The notes under the pieces are model-generated. The model saw only the letters and a list, made by a program, of their open reading frames with translations. It was not told where the DNA came from and made no database searches. This document shows, piece after piece, positions 9,649 through 35,073 of a stretch of DNA of 64,000 nt; the first letter of the stretch is position 1, and each line of letters begins with the position of its first letter. This stretch comes from an uncultured Chloroflexia bacterium (GTDB lineage: Bacteria > Chloroflexota > Limnocylindria > Limnocylindrales > CSP1-4): the NCBI GenBank assembly GCA_963715295.1, contig CAVQRP010000007.1:37330-101329 (forward strand), read 5' to 3'. A program made the position numbers and the translations under genes.

Positions 9649-10453
9649 TCACTCGGCGTCGAGCGGGGCCTCGTAGTCGAAGTCGGAGCGTCCGCGGCGC
9701 CAGTAGCCGGTGACCTTGACGGTGTCCGCCGTCAGGCCCGGCTTGTCCAGCAGCACCCGCCGCAGCTCGCGCATCGCCAGCGCCTCGCCGGCGGCCCAGG
9801 CCCAGGTGTCGTTGGCGTAGAGCTCAAGGGCCTGCACGGCTGGGACGAGCTGGTCGGCCTCGGGGTAGCCGCCCTCGGTCAGCCAGCGAACGGAGATGGG
9901 CTGGGCGCATCGCAGCTCGATGAGGTCGTCTTCGCTACCGGCAGCGATCACGACCTGCGCGGTCGCCCCTTCGGGCAGCACGGAGAGCCAGCGCGCGATC
10001 GCCGGCACCGCCGTGAGATCACCGGCGAGCAGGTAGTTGGGATAGCCGTCGGGCATGACCTTGGAGACTGAGCGGGCCGACGACACCGACGCGGTCCCCG
10101 GGCCGGGCGCTGGCGGCCCAGCCGGAAACGGGACCGCCTCCGTGGAGCAGGAAGCGGATATCCAGCTCCCCCGACACAGGGTCGAAGCGCCGCACCGTGT
10201 ACTCGCGCATGGGCGGTCGAGGCTCAGCCCAACGCAGGCGGCCGTCGACGACCTGCGGCAGGACGAGCTTCCCGCTGGTACCCGGGGGGATGATGCCGAC
10301 GTGGTCGGTCGGACTGGGCGTCTCGAAGCCTGCCAGGTCATCGCCGCCCAGCGTCACGAGCTGGTAGCGCGGCGCCGGCCGGGCGGTGCGCACCACCTCC
10401 AGCACGCGGACGTGCGCTGGGTGCTTGATCAGCTGGATGGAACGTGACGACAT
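9649..10453 (-). pseudogene. Siderophore-interacting protein (FAD-binding, ViuB/SIP family), one frameshift
   Basis: The N-terminal FAD-binding_9 half is in one frame (10019..10453) and the C-terminal NAD-binding half in another (9649..10120). Confidence 0.65.
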
Positions 10454-10527
10454 GAGCCCCTCCTCGTTCGGAAGCATAGCCACCACGGTGTAGGCTCGGG
10501 CTCCATCCAGCCTTTGAGGAGCGCACA

Positions 10528-10854
10528 GTGGCGACCGTCCGACCGACCATCCAGGACCTGCGCGAGCCCGTCGAGGTTCCGGCCGACGGCATCCTCAGCC
10601 GCGCCATCCACAACGACGACGATGCACGCGTCGTGCTGTTCTCCTTCGCCGCGGGCCAACAGCTCTCCGACCACACCGCGGCCGTTCCGGTCACGCTGGA
10701 GATCGTCGATGGCGAGGCCGACATCACGCTCGACGCCGAGTCGGTCGAGGGTCGGCCGGGGACCTGGATCCACCTGCCTGCAGACACGCCACACAGCGTC
10801 GTGGCCCGCACGCCCGTGACCATGCTGCTGACGTTGCTCAAGCGTGGACGCTGA
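10528..10854 (+). CDS. Cupin domain protein
   Basis: 108 aa with cupin_2 barrel motifs (LFSFAAGQQLSDHTA...GTWIHLPADTPH). GTG start. Confidence 0.7.
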   Translation: MATVRPTIQDLREPVEVPADGILSRAIHNDDDARVVLFSFAAGQQLSDHTAAVPVTLEIVDGEADITLDAESVEGRPGTWIHLPADTPHSVVARTPVTMLLTLLKRGR

Positions 10855-12585: not shown

Positions 12586-13142
12586 CCGCTCACCTCCGGT
12601 GCGGCGGAGCGGCGAAGGGGCCGCTCGGCTCTGATGGCAAGACGCAGCTTCTGCATGGCCCGGCCGAGCCTCGAATGGACCGTACCCTCGCGGATCCCAA
12701 GGGTACGGGCGACCTCCGGGATCGACAGCCCAGCGTAGTGGTGAAGCACCACGACAGCGCGCTGGTCGACCGACAGGCGCCGGAAGGCGCGTTCCAGCTC
12801 ATCACGGTCATGTACCGGCCCAAGGGCGTCTGCGGCCACGTCTTCGTGCTCACCGAACAGCTGTGGCAGCGTTCTTCTCGACCGGCGCGCCTCGGCATAG
12901 CAGGCGTGAACGACGATGCGGTACGCCCAGGCCTCGAACCGGGCCGGATCTCGCAGCGTCCGCAGCTGGCGCCAGATCTCGATGAGGGCCTGCTGCGTGG
13001 CGTCCTGCGCCAAGCCTCGATCGCGGAGGATGGAGAAGGCGACACGATTGAGACGCCCGCCCACGGCTACCGTCAGTCGGGCGAATGCATCCTCGTCCCC
13101 TCGCTGTGCCCGGATGACCAACTCTGGATCCATGCTCTCCAC
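12582..13142 (-). CDS. RNA polymerase sigma-70 factor, ECF subfamily
   Basis: Sigma-70 regions 2 and 4 (IEIWRQL..., SVDQRAVVVLHHYAGLSIPEVARTLGIREGTVHSRL). Confidence 0.85.
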   Translation of the reverse strand: MESMDPELVIRAQRGDEDAFARLTVAVGGRLNRVAFSILRDRGLAQDATQQALIEIWRQLRTLRDPARFEAWAYRIVVHACYAEARRSRRTLPQLFGEHEDVAADALGPVHDRDELERAFRRLSVDQRAVVVLHHYAGLSIPEVARTLGIREGTVHSRLGRAMQKLRLAIRAERPLRRSAAPEVSG

Positions 13143-13220
13143 ACATCGGACGCCCGTGGGTCGGGCACCTTCAATGGTACGAGGGCGTTCAGCCCCCGAA
13201 CCTGTCCCGCGATTCGCGAT

Positions 13221-17731: not shown

Positions 17732-18530
17732 ACGCGAATGGAGATGGAGGTCGAGCCGGGCGGCGGGTCCTCGGACACGACGATGACGTAGCCGCCGCCA
17801 CAGCCGGAGAACATCGCGCCACGGTAGGCGGCGGCGTAGCCTGCCAAGAGGCCCCGCAGGTCCACGCTGATGGCGGGATGCTCATAGACCTGGGGCAGGA
17901 TGGCGCCCCAGGCACGCGAGCACTCGTTGAGCGACGTACCGAGCGCATCAACGTCCATCGCCACGATGGCCTCGTAGCAGTCGCGCCCACTGGCACCCAG
18001 TCGCGCGATCCAGGCGGGGTCGAGATGCTTCACACCCAGTGGGTCGTAGCCGGCGGGTCGCCCTCCGACGGGCAGCAGGTGGATGACGCGTTCGAGCCAC
18101 TCGACGACGGCAGGGTCGGAGGTGGACTCCACGTGTGACGGAAACCAGCCGCCCTCCACGCCGGCGTCGTAGTCGAGCCGGTTGACGCCGGGATAGATCA
18201 TCCCGCACATGTCCTGCGAACCGGACGGGTCGGTCCGACCCTCGTTCTCGGCACGGTAGAGCTCGCGCACGAGGTCGGCCGGCGGCCGATCGGGCAGTGT
18301 GTCCCCCCACAGCCTCATGGCCACCTTGCGCGTGCCGGTGGCCATGCCGCAGCGGTCCATGAAGCGGCACGGTCGGGCAGCAGCGAACCACCACCATCGA
18401 GCCCGGCGGCTCCGGGTTGTGCCGGGACACGAACGGCTGGTCGATCCAGCCGCCGCCAGCTGCAGGCGGTACGGGAGCCGCCGATCGTGTCCTGTAGTGG
18501 CGAGCGCGCCGTGCCGGCTCCGCCGGTCAT
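17728..18530 (-). pseudogene. GHMP family sugar kinase, frameshifted
   Basis: C-terminal GHMP domain GAMFSGCGGGYVIVVS is in frame. The N-terminus (MTGGAGTARSPLQDTIGG...) is in another frame, with the frameshift near 18370. Confidence 0.6.
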
Positions 18531-18535
18531 CGGAT

Positions 18536-19595
18536 CTAGCCCTCGACGACGCGCTTGCCGGCCTTGCGATCGGCATACTGCTGCTCGATCCAGGCGTAGG
18601 TCTCGGCCAGGCCCTCGCGGAGCGGCGTGCTGGGCTCCCAGCCCAGGACCTGCTGGATGAAGGTGTTGTCGCTGTTGCGGCCGGCCACACCCTGGGGCGC
18701 GTCGAGGTCGTACTCGCGCTCGAGCTTCACGCCGGCGATCTCCTCGACGATCGCTGACCAGGTCGTTGATCGAGACCAGCTCGCTCGAGCCCAGGTTGAT
18801 GGGCGTGGCGATCAGGTCGTCGCAGTGCATGATCATGTCGATGCCCTTGACGCAGTCGTCGATGTACATGAAGCTGCGGGTCTGGTCGCCGTCGCCCCAG
18901 ATGTCGATGCGCATGTCGCCGGTGTCCTTGGCCTCGATCACCTTGCGGCAGATGGCGGCCGGCGCCTTCTCGCGGCCGCCGTCCCAGGTGCCGATGCGGA
19001 CCGTAGACGTTGTGGAAGCGGGCGATGGCGGTCTTCAGCCGCGCTCGGCCCAGTACTCCTGGCAGAACATCTCGCGACATCAGCTTCTCCCAGCCGTAGC
19101 CGCGCTCGGCCATGGCCGGGTAGGCATCGGATTCCTTGAGCGCGCGGACGTCGGGGTCCTTCTGCAGGTCGGTGTTGTAGGCGCAGGCCGACGAGGAGAA
19201 GAAGTAGCGCTGGGCGCCGGCCCGGTAGGCGGCCTCGATCATGTGGGTGTTGATGAGGATGCTGCGCAGGCACTCGACGCGGAAGTGCTCGATGAAGCCC
19301 ATGCCGCCCATGTCGGCCGCCAGGTTGTAGACCTCCACCGCGCCCTCGCACGGCCTCGATGGCAGTTGGCCTCCTCGCTCAGGTCCAGGCAGAGGCTCTC
19401 CACGCCGGGCACGCGCTGATACCACTCGGGCAGCGGCTTCTTGTCGATGGCGCGGATGTTGGTGAAGCCCTGCTCGTGGAAGTAGCGCGTCAGCGCCCCG
19501 GCGATGAAGCCGCCCGCGCCGGCGATGACGATCAGGTCGTCCTTGTTGAGGCCCCGCTTGACGTCGCTACCGGGGATGGTGTCGGTGAACTCCAT
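18536..19595 (-). pseudogene. GDP-mannose 3,5-epimerase (GME, extended SDR), at least 3 frameshifts
   Basis: Near-colinear match to plant GME motifs: IAGAGGFIAGAL, NLAADMGGMGFI, FFSSSACAYN, LKESDAYPA..YGWEKL, RFHNVYGP, IWGDGDQTRSFMYIDDCVKG, INLGSSELVSINDL, GVAGRNSDN..LGW. Spread over four ORF frames. Confidence 0.7.
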
Positions 19596-26791: not shown

Positions 26792-26910
26792 AGGGAAACG
26801 GTCATAAGCGAGCGTTCGGACATGGAAACCTCGGACTGATCGATCGGTCAGCCAACGATACCGCTGACGCCTGCTGCGGTGCGAGAAGGCGCGCCCTGCC
26901 CACATACGAG

Positions 26911-26975
26911 GCTGCAGCGCTCAGCCGGAACGGCTCAAAGAGTGCCCTGTCCTGACCGCCGAGCTAGCGGCCCAG
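26911..26975 (-). other. Degenerate tRNA-like remnant (resembles the 5' half of tRNA-Lys)
   Basis: GGGCCGCTAGCTCGGCGGTCAGGACAGGGCACTCTTTGAGCC is about 78% identical to the first 45 nt of the tRNA-Lys at 25970..26045. No T-arm or acceptor 3' strand. Confidence 0.4.
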
Positions 26976-27043
26976 TGATGTCGGCCAGGTCCATGGCTGC
27001 AAAGGGCCGACGACCGGCTCCAGCGGCGGCACCGGCCCCGATC

Positions 27044-28477
27044 CTACTCGGTGGCCGCCGCGGCCTCGGGGGTGATGACGTACGTGCCGACCTCCTGGCT
27101 CATCGGGTCAAGGGCCACGACCCAGGCGCTGCCGTCAGGCGCGAAGTCGAGGTCCGAGATGCAGCTGCCGGCGAGGAACGGCTGCCACGTCTCACCGTCG
27201 AAGCGGGCCACGCCATCACAGGTGCGTCTCCCAGTCCCGGTTGACGGGTCTGTCCCGCTGGCCGCGACGATGGTGGCATTGACCCAGGCGCTGCCGTCGG
27301 GCGCGGCCCTGAGCATGTCGGTGGGGGAGTTCCACTCCCCCCTCTGGCCGCCCCACGTGCCGACCCCGTCGGCTGCCGTGAACGTCGTCCAGCCCTGCTC
27401 GTCGAGTCGGGTGAGGCTCTGGTGCTGCACGAACGGGTCGCCGGCCGTCCACACCGTGCCACCGTCGGGTGTCAAGCCGACCGGATGAGTGAGCGGCGTG
27501 GGATCCCCGGGGTAGTCAGCGGGGGCGGGAAGGACCTGCCACTCCGTGCCGTCGAAGCGCAGGAACGAGACGGACCCGTCCTTGTCCGCCAGGGCCGTGA
27601 GCCAGACGATGCCGTCGTCCGTCACCACGGGTCCGGCCACCCCATGGTTTCCGCCGTCGAAGACATCAGGCCAACTGGTGCACCCGGCCGAGGTCTCGTC
27701 GGTCCAGCAGAGCTCGTGCGACTTGAGCCAGACCCTGCCATCAGCCTGCACCGCGATGGCGTCGAAGTCGCCCTCGACCCGGTGCTCGGCAGGCTCCCAC
27801 GCGCCATCCTCGAAGACTCTGGGAGCGCCGTTCGCGAGGGCCCAGAGCCGACCATCCAGACCGGCGTCGATCTGGCCATCCCAGAACGACACGGGAACGG
27901 GGTCGACGTCCCACGCACGCTCCTGTCCGACTCTATAGAGCCGCAGGCACCTCGACTCGGGGGCGGGCGCGACGCACGCTGCGGTGCGCCAGACGTTGCC
28001 GGCATCGCCCACGATGACGGCTCGCAGCCCGGGGTAGAGATAGTCCGCCCTTGCTGCGCCGAAAGTGAATCGCCTCATCGGGTCCGTCGATGTCGTCAGG
28101 TCGCGGTATCCGTCGTTGATGACCCGGAGGACGCCGGGCTCGACCTCCTCGGTGACCATCGTGGAGAGGAACGCCTTGGTCGTCACCGGGGAGGGTGGCT
28201 CGGTCACCGCCGCCGGGGCCATCTGGTCGCCCCGCTGTGTCGTGAGGATGCCAGCGAGAAGGAAGCCGCCGAACAGCGCCACGATGACGCTGGCGGCGAT
28301 GAACTTGACTGCGGAGAACACGGTGAACCCCCCTGTGTCGAAGTGAGGCAGCCAGGAACGCTGCTGCGGGGTGTCGAGGTCCGGGATCGCCAGCACCTCG
28401 TCGAGGAGTGCCGGCGGCTCGGGGATGCGGCTGCGCGCCTCATAGGTCGCCCGGAGCGCAGTGTCGAGGTCGTTCAT
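27044..28477 (-). CDS. Anti-sigma factor with extracytoplasmic beta-propeller-like domain
   Basis: Start overlaps the ECF sigma stop. Short cytoplasmic N-terminus, one TM, then Trp/Asp/Gly-rich repeats (DGxxW, DGSAWV) over roughly 380 aa. Confidence 0.65.
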   Translation of the reverse strand: MNDLDTALRATYEARSRIPEPPALLDEVLAIPDLDTPQQRSWLPHFDTGGFTVFSAVKFIAASVIVALFGGFLLAGILTTQRGDQMAPAAVTEPPSPVTTKAFLSTMVTEEVEPGVLRVINDGYRDLTTSTDPMRRFTFGAARADYLYPGLRAVIVGDAGNVWRTAACVAPAPESRCLRLYRVGQERAWDVDPVPVSFWDGQIDAGLDGRLWALANGAPRVFEDGAWEPAEHRVEGDFDAIAVQADGRVWLKSHELCWTDETSAGCTSWPDVFDGGNHGVAGPVVTDDGIVWLTALADKDGSVSFLRFDGTEWQVLPAPADYPGDPTPLTHPVGLTPDGGTVWTAGDPFVQHQSLTRLDEQGWTTFTAADGVGTWGGQRGEWNSPTDMLRAAPDGSAWVNATIVAASGTDPSTGTGRRTCDGVARFDGETWQPFLAGSCISDLDFAPDGSAWVVALDPMSQEVGTYVITPEAAAATE

Positions 28478-29043
28478 CGTCGTGTTCCCCGTGTGTCCGC
28501 CTCGTCCAGCACGGAGCGGAGGCGACGCTGAGCGTTGTGAAGACGCGACATGACGGTGCCGGAAGGGACTCCCAGCAGGGTCGCGATGTCATCGACCTTC
28601 AAGTCGCGGTAGTAGCGGAGCGCGAGGACGACCTGGTCGTCGGCCTTCAGTCGGGCCAGACCTGCCTCGATGCGCAACCGCTCAGGTATCGGTGCGATCA
28701 GGTCCGCTGCGGGTATCGACTCGGCGAGCGCGCCATCGTCGGTGATCAGCCTGGAGCCACGGCGGAGGCGATCACGACAGGTGTTGACGACGATACGTCC
28801 GAACCAGGACTCGAACCGCTGCTGGTCACGCAGCGTGCCCCATTTCCGCCATGCAGTGACGAATGCATCGTGGACGGCATCCCTGGCCTCGCTGGGGTCA
28901 CCCAGGATGGCGCTGGCGAGCCGGTAGCTGTCCGAGAGCTGGCGTGTGGCGAGCCGCCTGAAGGCGACCGCCTTCTCGTCGGCTCGCACGCCCTGCGCCC
29001 GATGGCCAGCGACTTGATCGTCCAGAGCCTGCCTCGTCGTCAT
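28474..29043 (-). CDS. RNA polymerase sigma-70 factor, ECF subfamily
   Basis: Regions 2 and 4 (FVTAWRKW, LALRYYRDLKVDDIATLLGVPSGTVMSRLH). Confidence 0.85.
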   Translation of the reverse strand: MTTRQALDDQVAGHRAQGVRADEKAVAFRRLATRQLSDSYRLASAILGDPSEARDAVHDAFVTAWRKWGTLRDQQRFESWFGRIVVNTCRDRLRRGSRLITDDGALAESIPAADLIAPIPERLRIEAGLARLKADDQVVLALRYYRDLKVDDIATLLGVPSGTVMSRLHNAQRRLRSVLDEADTRGTRR

Positions 29044-29269
29044 GGTGACCGGGTGCGTCGGCACCCGTCGTTCGGCTTCCACAATGACATGACGATCGGC
29101 GAACCGAAAACATTCATCCGCAGCTGGAGGAGATGAAACGCGAATACGGTGACGCCCCGGTCTCGATCGTCGCTATCCCAACGCGTGGCGCGCCCTGGGA
29201 GCCAAACCGCTCGAAGACCCATTGCGACCAAGCGCCTTGTCGAACCCCGTTGACCGGGGAAGTGGGGGC

Positions 29270-30809
29270 ATGGAAGATAGCCACATGGACGAAAGGCTGG
29301 GCGGCCGGTCGACGATCTGGACCCGTCGCCGCTCGCGCCTCGTGGTGGGCGCGTTGATCTTCGCGCTGGCGCCATCGACCGCACTCCCCTTCCTGGTGCC
29401 CGACCTCGCCGCCGTCGCTCGCGCGGACGAGACGTCCGGTCTCTGCGCCGCCAAGCTCGGGCCCTTGCGCCTGGAAGAGGACGCCATGGGCGGTGAGGAC
29501 GGCCCCGGAGGTTGGTCGTGGGTGCGCTGCAGGTATGACGATCCGAGGAAGGGCATCGCCGACTACGCCTCGATCCACGTCACGTGGGTCGAGCCGGGCA
29601 ATCCGAAGCTCGAGTCCGAAATCCACGTGGCGGTACTACTGCCAGACGGGTGACAATCGTGCAGCTGGCCGGCACGACCCTGACGGGTGGGACAAGGTCG
29701 ACTACTCGCTCGTAGGCGAGCGGCACATCGTGGCCTACTGGAGGGCCACCGAGGAGAAGGCCCGCAAACCTGCCAAGAAGCTGGCCGGGCGATTGCATGC
29801 CGCGTTCAAGGACCGTGCCGCCCCGTGTCCGGAGCGTCTGGAGCCGGGGGCGCCGCGGGCGGGCCAGACGGTGACGATCGTGCTGGTGGGCGACCGCGTC
29901 GACGCGCTCAGCGCCGGCGGTGGCGTGGGTGCCGTCATCGACCTCGAGCCCGATGAACGCAATAACCTCGTCGTCTGGGGCAACGGCGAGGTCATCACCG
30001 ACGAATACGTCGGCGCGCGCGGGGTCGTGACCGAGATCGGCCCAGTGGCGACGGGACGGGATGGCGAACGGGCCGTGCTGGTAACGGTCGAGGTCTGGCC
30101 GGATGGCTCGGACGCTGTGCCGGAGCCCGAGGCGACCGCTGTGCCGGAGCCCGAGGCGACCGCTGTGCCGGAGCCCGAGGCGACCGCTGTGCCGGAGCCC
30201 GAGGCGACCGCTGTGCCGGAGCCCGAGGCGACCGCCTGTGCCGGAGCCCGAGGCGACCGCCGTGCCGGAGCCCGAGGCGACCGCCGTGCCGGAGCCCGAG
30301 GCGACCGCCGTGCCGGAGCCCGAAGCGACCGCCGTGCCGGAGCCCGAGCGACCGCCGTGCCGGTGGACGTCGACGGAGTCATCCGCGACATCACCTCACA
30401 GGTGGAGGCTGCCGGGCGTGCCGGAAGTGGGACCGTCGAGGTGAGTGCCGAGGTCATCGCGGGGTTGGCGCGCCTGGTCCCGGACACCGTCACGTGGGTC
30501 CAGCTGCGCGAAGGCAACGCCGAGATCGGCCTCCGGGGTGCCAAGTGGCCGAGCGTCATCCTCGCCCCGCGCATCGACCCGACGACAGGCCAGGTGTCGG
30601 TCGCGGTCGTCGTCGAGGTGAACCTGCCCGTCGTAGGGTCGACGGAGCTGAACGTCAGGCCTCTGCTCGACACGGCCGAGCCGGAGATGTCGAAGCTTCT
30701 GCGTGACGCCGAGGAGGTGATCAACTCGATGGCAGCGGATGTCGGGCTACGGGTCTCCGAGATCAGCATCACGGCCGAGGGCGTGCGAGCGATAGCGTCT
30801 ACCGACTGA
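29270..30809 (+). pseudogene. Repeat-containing membrane-anchored protein with (AVPEPEAT)n array; three frameshifts in this assembly
   Basis: N-terminal TM (LVVGALIFALAPSTALPFLVP). Frame switches at ~29650, and a compensating +1/-1 pair lies inside the tandem repeat. The C-terminal ~150-aa domain has no recognised motif. Confidence 0.55.
30114..30365 (+). repeat. Tandem 24-bp repeat x ~10.4 (GCYGTGCCGGAGCCCGAGGCGACC), encoding AVPEPEAT
   Basis: Ten head-to-tail units. Unit 6 carries +1 C and unit 10 carries -1 G; otherwise only C/T wobble differences. Confidence 0.9.
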
Positions 30810-30955
30810 GGTAGCCCCATGAGACTGGTGCGTCCGACATCGCCTTGATCGCGGGCGGCGCGACTGGCAGCTGACGAGCCCGCCACCGCCCGCTGACGCC
30901 CCGCCAGGGGGCGTAGGGTCTCCCCACGACAACCCCATGAGGTCAGAGTCCCACC

Positions 30956-32087
30956 ATGACGGTCGAGGTCACCAGCAAGCTGACGGGGGAATGGATGACG
31001 CCCCGCCGACGGTTCCTGTCGGCGTTGTTCCGAGGCCACGTCGATCGAGGTGCCGGCCTGCAGCCTGAGCTCTGTCGCGACGGTGGAGCTGATGGACCTC
31101 GTGCGACGCCCCCTTCCCGGAGGCGCACCTCGACCCAGAGATGATGGCGCGCCTCGCCGCCACCTCCCACGAGGTGCTGGGCATGGACACGATCATGCCG
31201 GTGTGGCACTCGCAGCTCGAATCGGACGCCCTGGGCGGCGCCACCGACTGGGCCGCGAAGGACAACTGGCCATCGCCCTCGAAGTTCATGATCAGCCGAG
31301 CCCGACCAGGTCAACGTGCCCGACGACTTCGTCGAGCAGCCCACGATCAGGACCGTCACGGGCGCGATGCGCATCCTCCGCCGCCGCTTCCCTGACGTCG
31401 CCATCGTGGGCAAGGTCTACGGACCCTGGTCGGTCGCCTACCAGATGGTCGGGATCGAACCGTTCCTCATGGATACGATCCTGGATCCTGACAAGGTGCG
31501 CCGCTACCTGGATGCGTTCCTGCCGGCCTGCATCGCAGTCCGCGCACGCCCAGTTCGAGGCCGGTGCTGACGCCGTGATGTGGGCCGACCACACCACCGG
31601 CGACCTGTGCAGCGCGGAGACCTACCGCGACTTCCTGCTCGAGATGCACCAACGGATCACCCAGGAGATCGGTGGGCCCGGCGTCTTCCACTGCTGCGGC
31701 AAGACCATCGACCGCGTGCATCTCTTCGCCAACGCCGGTTGGGACTGCTTCCACTTCGAGTCGCAGGTCGACGCGCGCGAGGCGCGGGCGGCCGCCGGGG
31801 AGCGGATGTCCCTGTTCGGCAACCTCAACAACCCAACGCTCCTGTACAAGGGCACGGCCGACGATGTCTACCAGGCCTGCTGGGATCTCATGGACGCGGG
31901 CGTCGACGGCCTGGCGCCGGAAGGATCCGTGCCACTGATGACGAGGAAGGAGCCACTGCAGGCTATCGCCAGAGCGGCCAGCGATTGGGCCGCCCAGCAT
32001 CGCCATGGTGGTCAGTTCGTGGTGAAAGCGGAGCAGCCTGCTGCCGAGGTCGCCGCCGGCGGGCGAAGGGCGGACGAGAAGACGTAG
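30956..32087 (+). pseudogene. Uroporphyrinogen decarboxylase (URO-D)/MtaA-like family protein, at least 3 frameshifts
   Basis: N-terminus MTVEVTSKLTGEWMTPRRRFLSALFRGHVDRGA, middle IRTVTGAMRILRRRFPDVAIVGKVYGPWSVAYQMVGIEPFLMD and C-terminus AGADAVMWADHTTGDL...FHCCGKT are each in different frames. Confidence 0.6.
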
Positions 32088-32153: not shown

Positions 32154-33237
32154 CTAGCCGGCGTACCGTCCATGTTCGCGCACCGTCTCGTACAGAGCGA
32201 TGATGTTCTCGAGGGGCGTTTCGGGCAGGACGTAGTCGTGGCTGGGGGACGCGATGTAGCCACCACCCGGCATCATGATGTCGAGCACCTCGCGGGTCCT
32301 GGTCCTCACCAGGTCGGGCGTGCCCTGGATCAGGACGAACTGGGTGTCGATGCAGCCGTTCAGACGATCTTGTCGCCGAACGCAGCCTTGAGCTCGGACG
32401 GGTCCATGCCCCTGGCCGATGGCTGGAGGGCCTGCAGACCATCCAGCCCGATCTCGATCATGGCCGGGATGAGGGGCACGAAGCCGCCGCAGCAGTGCAT
32501 CATCACCTTCAGCCCGTAGTCATGGCCGAGGTCGACCAGCCGCTTCAGGTGCGGCAGGTAGAACCGCCGGAACATGGCTTCGCCCATCAGCGGCCCGTTC
32601 ATGCCGCCGAAGTCGTTGCCGATGAAGAAGATGTCCATGAGGTCGGCGGCGGCGTCGAAGATGCGCTGGCTGACGCCGAAGTAGTAGTCGACGATGTGCC
32701 CGAGCAGGGCATCGACCAGCTCCGGCTCCTCGTACGTCTTGACGATGAGGTTCTCCATGTCGAGCAGGTCGAAGGCGTCGTGCCAGAACGGCGACCAGTC
32801 GCCGCCGAGGATGGCGTACTCGCCCTGCCAGCGCTCGATCTCGGCCCTGATGCCGGACACGCTCATCCAGGCGGGATCGGGCCAGGCGTAGTCGTGGATC
32901 TCGCTCGAGCGTGGCGCCGGCCAAGGGGTGTTCACGGGGCATGCCGTAGCCGTAGCCGTGCCGCTCCACGCCGAACGGCGTCCGATACGTCGAGCCCGGG
33001 GCCAGGTCGGCATCCGGACCGAACTCCGGCGGGCCCGCATAGGTCGCGTACACACGTCGGAAGTCATCACCCAGGAAGACCGACAGCGCTTCGTCATCCT
33101 CCAGTCCCAGGTGATCGATCAACGAGCTGCCGGGTCTCAGGGGCAGCGCCCAGCCATGCCGGCACACGATCCGGTTCCTCGAAGGCGAACGCAGCCAGCA
33201 CGCGTTCCCTGGAAGTCATCGGCCGAGCGTGCGACAT
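32154..33237 (-). pseudogene. Second URO-D/MtaA-like family protein, at least 3 frameshifts
   Basis: AAGGAGG SD plus MSHARPMTSRERVLAAFAFEEPDRVPAW N-terminus. Middle AILGGDWSPFWHDAFDLLDMENLIVK...MHCCGGFVP and C-terminus IMMPGGGYIASPSHDYVLPETPLENIIALYETVREHG are in shifted frames. Confidence 0.6.
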
Positions 33238-33301: not shown

Positions 33302-33541
33302 TCACGCAGCCACACGCGAGGCTCCAGCATGCCCGAAGACCTGGGTCACGAACGGCGAGGTCATGGCCCTGACCAGGGCACTGTAGCCCAGGTGGAACCG
33401 GAGCTGGGCTCCCACGAGCGGCGATGTCGACCCGCAATCCAGGACGAGGTGGTCGCTGCTGGCGCCGATGATCGCGGTCCCTGGTGGCGCGACCAGACTG
33501 CTGCAGTCGGTGTCCTGCTCTCCGATCGCGAGGATCGCCTG
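33302..33541 (-). CDS. Small ORF resembling the C-terminal beta-domain of alanine-racemase-fold proteins (possible gene remnant)
   Basis: 79 aa with high GC3 (~85%). SSDHLVLDCG...GAQLRFHLGYSALVRAMTSPFV resembles the racemase C-terminal region. No N-terminal TIM-barrel part is present. Confidence 0.3.
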   Translation of the reverse strand, partial: QAILAIGEQDTDCSSLVAPPGTAIIGASSDHLVLDCGSTSPLVGAQLRFHLGYSALVRAMTSPFVTQVFGHAGASRVAA

Positions 33542-33777
33542 CATCCTCTCTCCGTTGCGCTCGGGTCGCGCAGCCGTGACGAGGGACAGGGCGCGCTCAG
33601 CCACCCGGCCATCCCCGGTCCGAGCAGGCGGGCCTGCTAGGCACGTACTCGGCGGCGATGTAGCATGCATAGGCCAAACAGACGCTGGACAAGCGCGTGA
33701 CACGCGCGAAAAGCATCCAGCCGCGCAGGCAAGCATCCCCGCGCGTCCAGCGAAGGCACTCGTAGAGGAGGTCCAGA

Positions 33778-35073
33778 TGTCAACACCGATCATCCGTGGG
33801 GCGGCCGTGCTCGCTTCGACGGTGGCACTGGTGGCGCTCATGGCGCTACCCGTTGCCACGGCAGCACAGGACGAGAACGCCAAGGTTCGCGTCCTGCATG
33901 GCTCCGGCGATGCCCCGGCCGTCGATGTCTACGCCGGCAAGAACCGCGTCGTGGAAGGCCTCGAGTTCGCCTCCATCACGCCGTACCTGGAGGTTCCCGG
34001 CGGCGAGTACCGCATCCGGGTCGTGCCGGCCGGCGCATCGCTGGAGGAAGGCCCCGTCGTCATCGACGCCAAGCTCGCCTTCGACGGTGGGACCGCGACC
34101 ACCGTGGCCGCCACCGGCAGCCTGGCCGAGGGCATCATCCCGCAGGTCCTGCTCGATGACCCCAGCCCCAGCGTGGAGAACGCTCAGGCTCGCGTCGTCC
34201 ACTTCGCCTACGACGCCCCGGCAGTAGACATCGTGCCCGTCGACGGCGACCCCCTTGTCACCGACCTGGCCTACCCGGACAACTCAGGGTATGCCGACGT
34301 GCCCCCGGGCAGCTACACGCTGGAGGTCCGCGCCGCCGGCAGCCCCGACGCGGTGGTCACGCTACCGCCCCATCGACGTCGCGGCCGGCACCAGTTCGAG
34401 CGCCTTCGCGGTGGGCAGCCTGGAGGCTGGAACCTTCACCGTCGTCCCGGCGCTCGACGCGTCGATCCCGACCACGGCCACGCTGCGGGTGCTGCACGCG
34501 TCGCCCGACGCACCGCCGGTCGACGTCGTCCTCAACGGCGTGCGTGTCTTCGGCAACCTGCCGTTCGGCCAGAGCTCCATCGTACTCACGGTCCCGGTCG
34601 GTGAGAACCAGCTCCAGATCATCCCCTCCGGTGGCTTGCTCGAGGACAGCCCCGTGGTCATCGATGCCACGCTGCCCTTCGAGGGCGGCACGCAGACGAC
34701 CGTCATCGCCAGCAACAGCCTGGAGAACATCGAGGCCACCGTCGTAGCCGACGACCTCGAGACCAAGGCCAAGCGGGCCCAGATCCGGGTGGGCCACCTC
34801 AGCGCCGATGCTCCCAACGTGGACATCGCCCCCGACGGCTCCAAGTCCAAGGACGCCCTGCTCAAGGGCGTCGCCTACGGCACGGTGTCGGACTACCTGA
34901 CCGTCAAGGGCGGCGAGTACGACCTCGATGTTCGGGAACCGGGCACCAGGAACGTCATCGCCGACCTGGCCGCCCTCCAGCTCGAGAAGGGCACGAACTA
35001 CAGCGCCTACGCCATCGGCTCCCCAGCCGACGGCAGCTTCCAGGTCGTGCTGCTGGTGGACGCCACCTCCTAG
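33778..35073 (+). pseudogene. Secreted DUF4397 domain protein (three internal ~105-aa repeats), one frameshift
   Basis: Signal peptide, then three repeats of VRVLHASPDAPAVDVY...GEY...V..AG. Frameshift near 34370. SD GAGGAGG. Confidence 0.7.

Follow-up and report, generated by a model that had tools for sequence, protein, structure and literature searches.

This locus raises two questions: whether an ECF sigma factor and its membrane partner control the divergently oriented gene beside them, and whether the tandem repeat in that gene makes it a contingency (length-variable) locus, as the initial annotation proposed. The window, meaning the whole stretch of Chloroflexia DNA that was analysed (64,000 nucleotides), holds the locus at positions 27044 to 30809. 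On balance, we think it rather likely that the locus comprises two adjacent, probably independent units, namely an autoregulated sigma operon and a gene for a secreted protein with a repeat linker, the latter gene being split by errors. The features of the first unit are:

28474..29082, minus strand: ECF (group IV) sigma factor of 202 aa, starting at GTG 29082 (Pfam and NCBIfam).
29091..29116, minus strand: predicted autoregulatory ECF-type promoter of the sigma operon (motif conserved among paralogues).
27044..28477, minus strand: putative anti-sigma factor, 477 aa (context, AF2/Foldseek and co-variation).

The sigma factor matches Sigma70_r2 (3e-14, aa 49-111) and r4_2 (1e-10, aa 136-187) in Pfam, and the NCBIfam model sigma70-ECF (TIGR02937) with 74.2 bits against a cut-off of 42.9; with sigma-2 and sigma-4 domains only and a score above the cut-off, it falls in the ECF (group IV) class. 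Its start was placed at GTG 29082: the sequence GTGGA is kept in paralogues, and the internal ATG of the window (29043) is replaced by AAT in one of them (L036).

A comparison of the regions upstream of paralogous sigma genes revealed a candidate promoter, TGAAT-N17-CGTC, with the -35 TGAAT at 29116..29112, the -10 CGTC at 29094..29091 and a spacer of 17 nt. The motif recurs, at a fixed distance, in front of the genes of 10 sigma paralogues (50-82% identity). A position weight matrix (PWM) built from 11 paralogous sites recovered held-out sites in the loci L029 and L067, and the site at 29116-29091 on the minus strand is the only one in the window to exceed shuffle noise; each locus has one copy. 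Its AAC-like -35 and CGTC-like -10 are those of an autoregulatory ECF promoter, which it is predicted to be. Since the GTG start lies only 8 nt downstream of the -10, the transcript of the sigma gene would be near-leaderless. Regular-expression searches for GGAAC/GAAC...CGT promoters had found nothing, and the TGAAT/sAAy...CGTC form emerged only from the paralogous comparison. The closest relatives of the neighbouring membrane protein (L001 and L002) were uninformative for this alignment because their sigmas are just 32-34% identical to that of the window. A scan of 26800-31200 for the sigma-70 consensus gave no promoters. The paralogous comparison defines a promoter motif for one ECF subfamily that is expanded in Chloroflexia.

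The start of the membrane protein gene overlaps the sigma stop codon by 4 nt (ATGA). The protein begins with a cytoplasmic N-terminus of about 50 aa with two helices, crosses the membrane once (TM helix, aa 54-78) and carries a beta-propeller on the extracytoplasmic side. Its AF2 model (pLDDT 79, pTM 0.75) gave 383 PDB fold matches at E<=1e-3, with propellers on top, and Foldseek aligned the ectodomain with the PknD sensor (1rwl/1rwi) and with BT4663 (4a2m), each at probability 1.0, which identifies the fold as a beta-propeller. Members of the family also match Reg_prop and Vgb_lyase weakly. On these points Pfam/NCBIfam, AF2 and Foldseek agree with the initial annotation, which had described an ECF sigma paired with a membrane protein bearing a propeller-like sensor.

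Whether this protein is an anti-sigma factor must be judged on other grounds. Pfam and NCBIfam gave no domain match for it, anti-sigma models matched none of 32 family members, and in the AF2 model two short helices precede the TM segment where class I anti-sigma factors (ASD/zf-HC2/RskA) have a four-helix domain. Across paralogues, however, similarity in the N-terminal 85 aa goes along with similarity of the sigmas; for the ectodomain there is no such relation. The 4-nt overlap, the single TM helix and the co-variation of the N-terminus with sigma fit an anti-sigma factor in the functional sense, and it is from such context that the product is putatively assigned. The short N-terminus would hold sigma at the membrane protein, the propeller ectodomain would sense an extracytoplasmic cue, and sigma, once released, would transcribe its own operon from the TGAAT-N17-CGTC promoter.

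Sigma/membrane-propeller pairs number dozens in these uncultured Chloroflexia genomes, and two modules, sigma plus N-terminus and TM plus sensor, are shuffled between paralogues. This is evidence that such putative anti-sigma factors evolve by recombining sigma-binding modules with different sensor modules, and it is the most reusable lead from this locus. The pair resembles the known ECF/membrane anti-sigma pairs sigma-E/RseA and SigW/RsiW (Casas-Pastor et al. 2021, PMC7826278) in having a sigma with sigma-2 and sigma-4 only, in its translational coupling to a single-pass membrane protein and in its autoregulatory AAC/AAT...CGTC-type promoter, here predicted. It differs from them in its short cytoplasmic part (about 50 aa), for which two helices are predicted and zf-HC2/RskA gave no match, and in its beta-propeller sensor, its module shuffling and the massive expansion of its family in Chloroflexia MAGs. 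The sensors of the Reg_prop/PknD type, such as those of the BT4663 hybrid two-component system (4a2m) and M. tuberculosis PknD (1rwl), have the same fold (probability 1.0) and share the "PDGxxW...RFDGxxW" blade repeats, the extracytoplasmic position and the attachment to a signalling protein. Sequence identity to BT4663 and PknD is nevertheless 10-16%, and the output here would be the sequestration of sigma rather than a kinase.

The second unit, on the opposite strand, comprises:

29270..29653, plus strand: first part (5') of the repeat-protein gene, encoding 127 aa in the assembly (P0122; GC3 0.8-0.9).
29635..30809, plus strand: rest of the repeat-protein gene (ORF and GC3), running from the remaining N-domain through a small beta domain and the linker to an alpha/beta domain of about 150 aa at the C-terminus.
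30114..30363 (from 30113 according to TRF), plus strand: 24-bp tandem array, 10 units and a 10-nt partial unit, native frame AVPEPEAT.

Is this gene a target of the adjacent sigma, with an array whose length is tuned by slippage? The gene and the regulator proposed for it are divergent neighbours, ECFs and their targets are often encoded together (PMC7826278), and a distant homologue (P0130, at L007/L008/L009) also sits beside a sigma and TM-propeller pair. Yet the conserved promoter of the sigma has no copy facing the repeat gene: the predicted site is on the minus strand before sigma itself, and nothing on the plus strand (29081-29300) scores above 1.6 bits with the PWM. Searches with the GGAAC/GAAC...CGT expression, of the kind that the initial annotation had recommended, and with relaxed expressions found nothing toward the repeat gene. 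Moreover, none of the 76 paralogous sigma/anti-sigma loci has a member of the repeat family within 6 kb, and the repeat-family loci L003, L004 and L006 have unrelated neighbours, so that neither motif nor conserved linkage places the gene in the regulon of the adjacent sigma.

The array, for its part, is a length-variable candidate in that its near-identical units imply recent expansion. It lies inside the ORF, and its period of 24 bp (8 codons) alters neither frame nor promoter spacing. Because this period is a multiple of three, gain or loss of units can alter the length of the linker, whereas on/off switching by copy number, as at a contingency locus, is impossible. ECF control and contingency behaviour are thus both unsupported, and we regard as quite improbable the reading that combines them. 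Against the independence of the repeat gene, sigma/propeller pairs adjoin two of about five independent repeat-family loci (that of the window and that of P0130), which is more than a rough estimate of 6% chance per locus would give, so that some functional link may exist between the family and such pairs.

As to the protein itself, the first ORF encodes a signal peptide or N-terminal anchor and the first half of a Cys-containing N-domain. The initial annotation took the protein to be TM-anchored; the hydrophobic N-terminal segment is there, but its ORF is in another frame than the repeat, and the segment is followed by ARA|DE, so that a cleavable signal peptide appears as likely as an anchor. 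The public annotation of the repeat ORF (P0001) starts at GTG 29730 and gives 359 aa without a signal peptide. Three single-base edits convert the two fragments into one ORF of 512 aa. Its product would start with a signal peptide and continue with an N-domain containing four conserved cysteines, a small beta domain, an acidic linker rich in Pro and Glu and, at the C-terminus, an alpha/beta domain. The expectation that the flanking frames could be joined after indel correction is borne out by homologues as well: the alignments of P0123-P0130 cover query residues 21-308 or comparable ranges and cross the junction of the two ORFs at residues 122/123.

These homologues were found by an exhaustive HMMER search and are distant (33-39% identity). 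An ordinary homologue search returned only the window's own protein, both with the repeats, when it was swamped by repeat words, and without them. Neither 5.8 billion clusters nor 1.84 billion representatives contained a relative above 39% identity, the databases searched held no second strain, and a search of JGI metagenomes with a sub-alignment of the family gave only a duplicate of L004. Among the homologues, W106, C124 and C186 are invariant, whereas the linkers are P/E/T/D-rich, variable in length and, save for small duplications, non-repetitive. The protein has no Pfam match and no PDB fold match; in its AF2 model the domains have pLDDT 70-89 and the repeat linker, with pLDDT below 50, is disordered. 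Taken together, these data define a small, rare, uncharacterised family of two-module proteins, predicted to be secreted or on the surface, with a duplication-prone linker.

The array within this linker was detected by TRF with period 24, 10.5 copies, 97% match and a score of 444, and nine copies with at most three mismatches were observed where none is expected by chance; the claim of a recent, nearly perfect array of ten 24-bp units in the divergent neighbour is therefore sound. Units 1-5 are identical and start with GCT (GCTGTG...), and units 6-10 start with GCC. The unit was probably amplified recently in the lineage of the window by slippage or unequal recombination, and the array is possibly a block of five units duplicated once. 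The outcome, (AVPEPEAT)10, would be an extended spacer able to change in length without loss of frame; in the model it is a disordered linker, rich in Pro and Glu, that connects two globular modules. In this it is like the P/E-rich spacers of TonB ((EP)n/(KP)n), the trypanosome procyclin EP repeat, the SPRR/cornifin octapeptide and the PT linkers of glycoside hydrolases: a P/E-rich unit, here of 8 residues, recurs head to tail and is predicted to be disordered or extended between globular modules of an exported protein. The likeness is without homology, the AVPEPEAT unit and its flanking domains belonging to an uncharacterised family, and matches of the repeat to Cornifin, PARP, TonB and ClfB were rejected as compositional. 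Like simple-sequence contingency loci, which are phase-variable genes with short repeats, the array consists of near-identical tandem units inside the coding sequence of a secreted or surface protein; unlike them, it has a period in which slippage alters length and not frame, and the frame changes that are present are single-base indels and not gains or losses of units.

This brings us to the three frame breaks:

29624..29635, plus strand: frameshift site 1, +1 base, after the ESEIH codons and ahead of the conserved YYC codons.
30234..30240, plus strand: frameshift site 2, +1 base, GCCTGTG at the boundary between GCT-type and GCC-type units.
30343..30350, plus strand: frameshift site 3, -1 base, CCCGAG-CGACC in place of CCCGAGGCGACC, in unit 10.

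At site 1, a Viterbi frame tracker switches at 29634/29635, with W106 before and C124 after the switch, and dropping one G near 29630 restores the frame. In the array, unit 6 (30234-30258) has 25 nt (GCCTGTG...) and unit 10 (30331-30353) has 23 nt. The initial annotation had all ten units encode AVPEPEAT, which holds for the native frame; as assembled, only five do so, the next five reading (C/R)AGARGDR, a basic frame (AGARGDRR) set by the +1 in unit 6 and the -1 in unit 10, after which the original frame returns. Two single-base corrections put the whole array in frame as a coding, VNTR-type linker.

One explanation of the two array indels is that they are real and compensating, and that the protein has an acidic block, (AVPEPEAT)5, followed by a basic one, (AGARGDRR)~4.5, of inverted charge. 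The frame is indeed restored exactly after 110 nt, both frames are open, and the net charge is -10 in the first block and +9 in the second. However, GC3 follows the AVPEPEAT frame throughout units 6-10, and the differences between units (GCT/GCC, GAG/GAA) are synonymous in that frame, so units 6-10 evolved in it; in addition, a third, uncompensated frameshift severs the signal peptide, and the assembly is prone to indels. This explanation is accordingly held to be highly improbable. Very doubtful indeed is its extension, in which the +1/-1 pair is real and single-base slips where units meet would move blocks of units between the acidic (-2 per unit) and basic AGARGDRR (+2 per unit) frames while the C-terminal domain stays in frame; were it true, frame switching would alter the charge of a surface-protein stalk, a behaviour distinct from classical on/off phase variation.

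Another explanation is that all the indels are real and that the gene is a pseudogene, decaying along with two URO-D genes downstream. The three indels in 1.5 kb of the repeat gene exceed the background of about 0.25 per kb, the URO-D genes add at least three more breaks, and the resulting cluster, at least six breaks in 29.6-33.2 kb, could also mean a decaying region; furthermore, a singleton without a close relative is what would be expected of a dispensable accessory gene. Nevertheless, every segment keeps its coding signature (GC3 0.8-0.97), there is no stop derived from a substitution, and all the changes are single-base indels, the error mode of Nanopore consensus sequences. The base inserted in unit 6 looks like a superposition of the GCT and GCC unit variants and would then be an artefact. 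Distant, unrelated genes of the window are broken alike. Frame splits verified with Pfam affect the two URO-D genes (one of them at profile positions 40-102 / 104-190 / 190-343), an epimerase gene and the gene of a siderophore-interacting protein (SIP). Decay is therefore considered unlikely.

Probably, the three 1-nt breaks are instead Nanopore consensus errors, because other genes in the window are split and because related MAGs, with which the window is presumed to share its assembly method, are Nanopore-only (Flye --nano-hq and one Medaka round, without short-read polishing; PMC12313526); their paralogous genes show 18 frame changes over 73 kb, or about 0.25 per kb. The "perfection" of the repeat, which comes from a demonstrably indel-prone consensus, is likewise to be treated with caution. 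Indeed, the locus serves mainly as a caution that, in Nanopore-only MAGs, single-base indels in tandem repeats and their neighbouring genes mimic pseudogenes, "compensated frameshifts" and truncated ORFs.

Two minor points concern the frame breaks. At the N-terminal break, a reading as two G-homopolymer deletions via the third frame (LLPDG-VTIVQLAGTTLTGG-DKVDY) was rejected in favour of one +1 near 29630, since the conserved Cys (YYCQTGDN) is in the downstream frame. Further frame switches are suspected in the window at 7-8 kb, 36-38 kb, 59-60 kb and 63-64 kb.

The locus comprises an ordinary ECF pair adjoining an orphan secreted protein whose linker is a tandem repeat, in an indel-prone assembly. 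From the initial annotation, the pairing of the regulators and the recency of the repeat stand; its "ECF target" and "contingency locus" are unsupported. The pair, in a window of 67-72% G+C, comprises:

28474-29082, minus strand: ECF sigma gene (Pfam Sigma70_r2, 3e-14; Sigma70_r4_2, 1e-10)
27044-28477, minus strand: putative anti-sigma gene, 477 aa, its start overlapping the sigma stop by ATGA

The sigma also matches the NCBIfam sigma70-ECF model at 74 bits (cut-off 42.9), while the 477-aa protein has no match in Pfam or NCBIfam. An AlphaFold model of the latter, built on an alignment of 32 homologues (mean pLDDT 79, pTM 0.75), begins with two short helices, followed by a long one at residues 54-78, corresponding to the hydrophobic segment FSAVKFIAASVIVALFGGFLLAGIL, and an all-beta domain that Foldseek classes as a beta-propeller (probability 1.0); the top matches of this ectodomain are the PknD sensor (1rwl/1rwi), the designed Pizza propellers and the periplasmic sensor BT4663 (4a2m). 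Since this fold is accompanied by family matches (weak Reg_prop matches in 8 of the 32 family members, and Vgb_lyase in 8/32), the proposed pairing of an ECF sigma with a propeller anti-sigma holds. A second ECF sigma, at ~12642-13220 on the minus strand, shares 39% identity with the first and 44% with a sigma adjoining P0130, a distant homologue of the repeat protein, in locus L007.

The divergent repeat gene (29270-30809, plus strand) is split between frames in the assembly:

29270-29653, plus strand: ORF of 127 aa with the hydrophobic N-terminus (P0122), in a frame other than that of the repeat ORF
from GTG 29730, plus strand: publicly annotated repeat ORF of 359 aa (P0001)

The hydrophobic N-terminus of the TM-anchored protein described initially is that of the 127-aa ORF. 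When 1.84 billion representatives were searched exhaustively with HMMER, using the joined query without its repeats, no more than ten proteins reached E<=1e-3, and two of these are fragments from the window itself. The rest (P0123-P0130; 328-522 aa, 32-39% identity) give alignments that cross the ORF junction, such as query 21-308 with P0124 11-308 and query 43-263 with P0130 27-263, and in which an invariant W106 lies before the first break and an invariant C124 and C186-P187 after it. This first break is one extra base near 29624-29635. Using a Viterbi frame tracker trained on the window's long ORFs, frame switches were placed at 29634/5, 30237/8 and 30347/8. Three single-base edits (-G, -C, +G) join the flanking frames into one ORF of 512 aa, in which AVPEPEAT occurs as ten perfect units.

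The array itself (30113-30363; TRF period 24 bp, 10.5 copies, 97% matches, score 444) outscores every other tandem repeat of the window by a wide margin, the remainder scoring <=55; nine unit matches within three mismatches were observed, against 0 expected by chance. Its units are:

30114-30233, plus strand: units 1-5, identical, GCTGTGCCGGAGCCCGAGGCGACC
30234-30258, plus strand: unit 6, 25 nt, GCCTGTG...
plus strand: units 7-8, beginning GCCGTG
plus strand: unit 9, with a GAG>GAA change
30331-30353, plus strand: unit 10, 23 nt, CCCGAG-CGACC

The assembled ORF reads (AVPEPEAT)5, then CAGARGDRRAGARGDRR..., and regains the original frame at AVPVDVDG, so that of the ten near-identical AVPEPEAT units described initially, the recent 24-bp array is confirmed and the assembled frame yields the peptide in five only. 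All ten nevertheless evolved as AVPEPEAT, because the GCT/GCC and GAG/GAA differences between units are synonymous in that frame only, and GC3 tracks it across units 6-10. The same two observations argue against a real compensated frame switch inside the array, which we regard as very improbable. In the shifted frame, the units at 30234-30353 read AGARGDRR, which is basic and contains an RGD tripeptide (block charge +9, versus -10 for (AVPEPEAT)5); this pattern is almost certainly coincidental. The substructure of five GCT-type and five GCC-type units, together with an alternative TRF period of 121 bp, suggests that a five-unit block was duplicated once.

As to the origin of the three indels, other genes of the window are broken likewise, as confirmed by Pfam profile coordinates that run on consecutively from one frame to another:

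9652-10594, minus strand: siderophore-interacting protein, FAD_binding_9 and SIP in separate frames
18318-19566, minus strand: NAD-dependent epimerase, profile 67-181 and 180-227
31093-32087, plus strand: URO-D (uroporphyrinogen decarboxylase/MtaA-like) protein directly downstream of the repeat gene, profile 40-102, 104-190 and 190-343 in three frames
32157-33118, minus strand: second URO-D (MtaA-like) protein, profile 134-265 and 282-346

The first two place indels throughout the window. Two overlapping ORFs at 33387-35073 (plus strand) also carry pairs of DUF4397 domains in different frames and may together form a four-domain gene that a further frameshift has divided. The anti-sigma gene has its closest relatives in MAGs labelled "uncultured Chloroflexia" and MFDxxxxx.bin, whose contigs are called contig_N; MFD MAGs are part of Microflora Danica, a long-read catalogue that is Nanopore-only and was assembled with Flye --meta --nano-hq and one Medaka round (PMC12313526). 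Among paralogous anti-sigma genes of the MFD loci L010-L085, 15 of 67 have collinear frame changes (18 in 73 kb, 0.25/kb); either a Nanopore consensus problem of a general kind is responsible, or pseudogenisation is widespread in what is an expanded family. Finally, the inserted base of unit 6 lies exactly where GCT-type meets GCC-type, and GCCTGTG holds both variants, as could arise from the consensus caller if reads were misaligned inside the repeat. On the basis of these frame-split neighbours, Nanopore-only relatives, paralogue frame changes and merged unit variants, the indels are probably a consensus artefact. Against this reading, their density, three per 1.5 kb, is above the 0.25/kb background, and with the URO-D genes they make up a local cluster of at least six breaks in ~3.5 kb (29.6-33.2 kb), as a decaying region would also show; given the similarly broken genes elsewhere and the Nanopore-only origin of the relatives' MAGs, we consider a true pseudogene unlikely.

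The repeat protein belongs to a tiny, uncharacterised family, with no close relative in the collections searched (the 1.84 billion representatives included). Pfam finds no domain across its members, the Cornifin/PARP matches to the repeat being compositional and rejected as such; the PDB yields no relative by sequence and no match by fold (best E = 0.07). Its members share an architecture of five parts:

part 1: N-terminal signal-like segment, in the window RRRSRLVVGALIFALAPSTALPFLV...ARA|DE, with predicted cleavage at ARA|DE
part 2: alpha/beta domain with four conserved cysteines
part 3: small beta domain, TTIVLSGG...VIREEFIG...VLVTVEV
part 4: variable-length linker, rich in P, E, T, D and A
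part 5: C-terminal alpha/beta domain, ~150 aa

Homologue linkers are non-repetitive save for tiny duplications (24 bp x 1.9 in L007, for example); that of the window is the ten-unit array, with predicted disorder (pLDDT <50 at residues 285-360 of the AlphaFold model). The best-supported reading is that a lineage-specific tandem amplification built or extended an acidic, Pro-rich spacer between two exported modules. A unit eight codons long would, when gained or lost, alter spacer length and not expression, in the manner of a VNTR; a contingency locus with on/off switching does not fit a 24-bp unit. The recent repeat beside the regulator pair (97% matches, units 1-5 identical) is real.

Control of this gene by the sigma was assessed from the sigma's own promoter. 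A comparison of the regions upstream of sigma paralogues in fetched loci (46-82% identical to the window sigma) revealed a bipartite motif, sAAy(n)TTy - 17/18 nt - CGTC, whose spacing from a GTGGA start, itself conserved, is fixed. The window copy is TGAATGTTTTCGGTTCGCCGATCGTC on the minus strand:

29116-29112 (-35) and 29094-29091 (-10), minus strand: putative sigma promoter, with GTG 29082 eight nt downstream

This start is supported by L036, which has AAT at the position of the internal ATG 29043, and the sigma transcript is thus probably near-leaderless. The motif lies ~8 nt before GTGGA in the window (29080-29116, minus strand) and in L017, L020, L029, L032, L036, L048, L049, L051, L052, L067, L071, L079 and L080, which suggests such transcripts in this Chloroflexia ECF subfamily. 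A PWM of 11 sites recovered held-out sites that precede further paralogues, in L029 (23.9 bits) and L067 (24.7 bits); each locus has exactly one such site, always preceding the sigma, and in the window only the sigma's own site rises over shuffle noise.

On the plus strand between the sigma promoter and the repeat gene, the best PWM score is 1.6 bits and relaxed patterns have no match; nor did GGAAC/GAAC...CGT searches of the intergenic region find the ECF-type promoter anticipated there. Relatives of the repeat protein are absent within +/-6 kb of all 76 anti-sigma-family loci. The initial designation of the repeat gene as an ECF target is therefore not supported by these sequence comparisons. 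Family genes at L003 and L004/L086 follow and overlap genes for secreted proteins (187/198 aa) to which they are translationally coupled:

L003 260-823; L004 1301-1897; L086 508-1326: preceding, overlapping genes, no Pfam match

These proteins, of which there are two versions with 31-35% identity between them, may be the true partner of the family; a counterpart is absent from the window. The neighbours in L006 are unrelated. Only at the P0130 locus (L007/L008/L009) is the family gene followed by an ECF sigma and a TM-propeller protein, the latter sharing 25% identity with that of the window. Since ECF sigmas are dense (two in the 64-kb window, three apiece in two paralogous loci of 17 kb), chance adjacency is not negligible (roughly ~6% per locus, or p ~0.03 for 2/5 loci), and synteny is of little help on ECF control. 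At L007 4145-6248 and L008 4900-7003, the P0130-linked sigma has no region-4 match and an off-frame-looking tail, and the 420-aa propeller protein after it begins at its own TM segment; the layout, identical in two independent short-read assemblies, may reflect a genuine frameshift or a mis-called start.

The 477-aa protein is not assigned to class I ASD, because anti-sigma domain models match neither it nor the 32 family members and its cytoplasmic part is only ~50 residues. It is likely, however, to act as an anti-sigma, given its translational coupling and an N-terminus that tracks the partner sigma: its first 85 residues show 45-67% identity in exactly the loci where the sigma shows 48-56% (L017, L020, L032, L048, L051 and L052), several of which carry other ectodomains. 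Conversely, P0004, a close relative in L002/L012, is 84% identical to the window protein, gap-free, over residues 50-477 (TM and propeller), whereas residues 1-49 are unrelated and the partner sigmas only 34% identical, the breakpoint falling sharply at the cytoplasm/membrane boundary. Paralogous anti-sigma factors have here exchanged a sigma and N-terminus module against a TM and sensor module, and this swap at the membrane boundary, though outside the question of the repeat and its ECF neighbour, is the most interesting observation made. A single MAG, MFD09779.bin.2.210, supplies at least 12 loci of the anti-sigma family.
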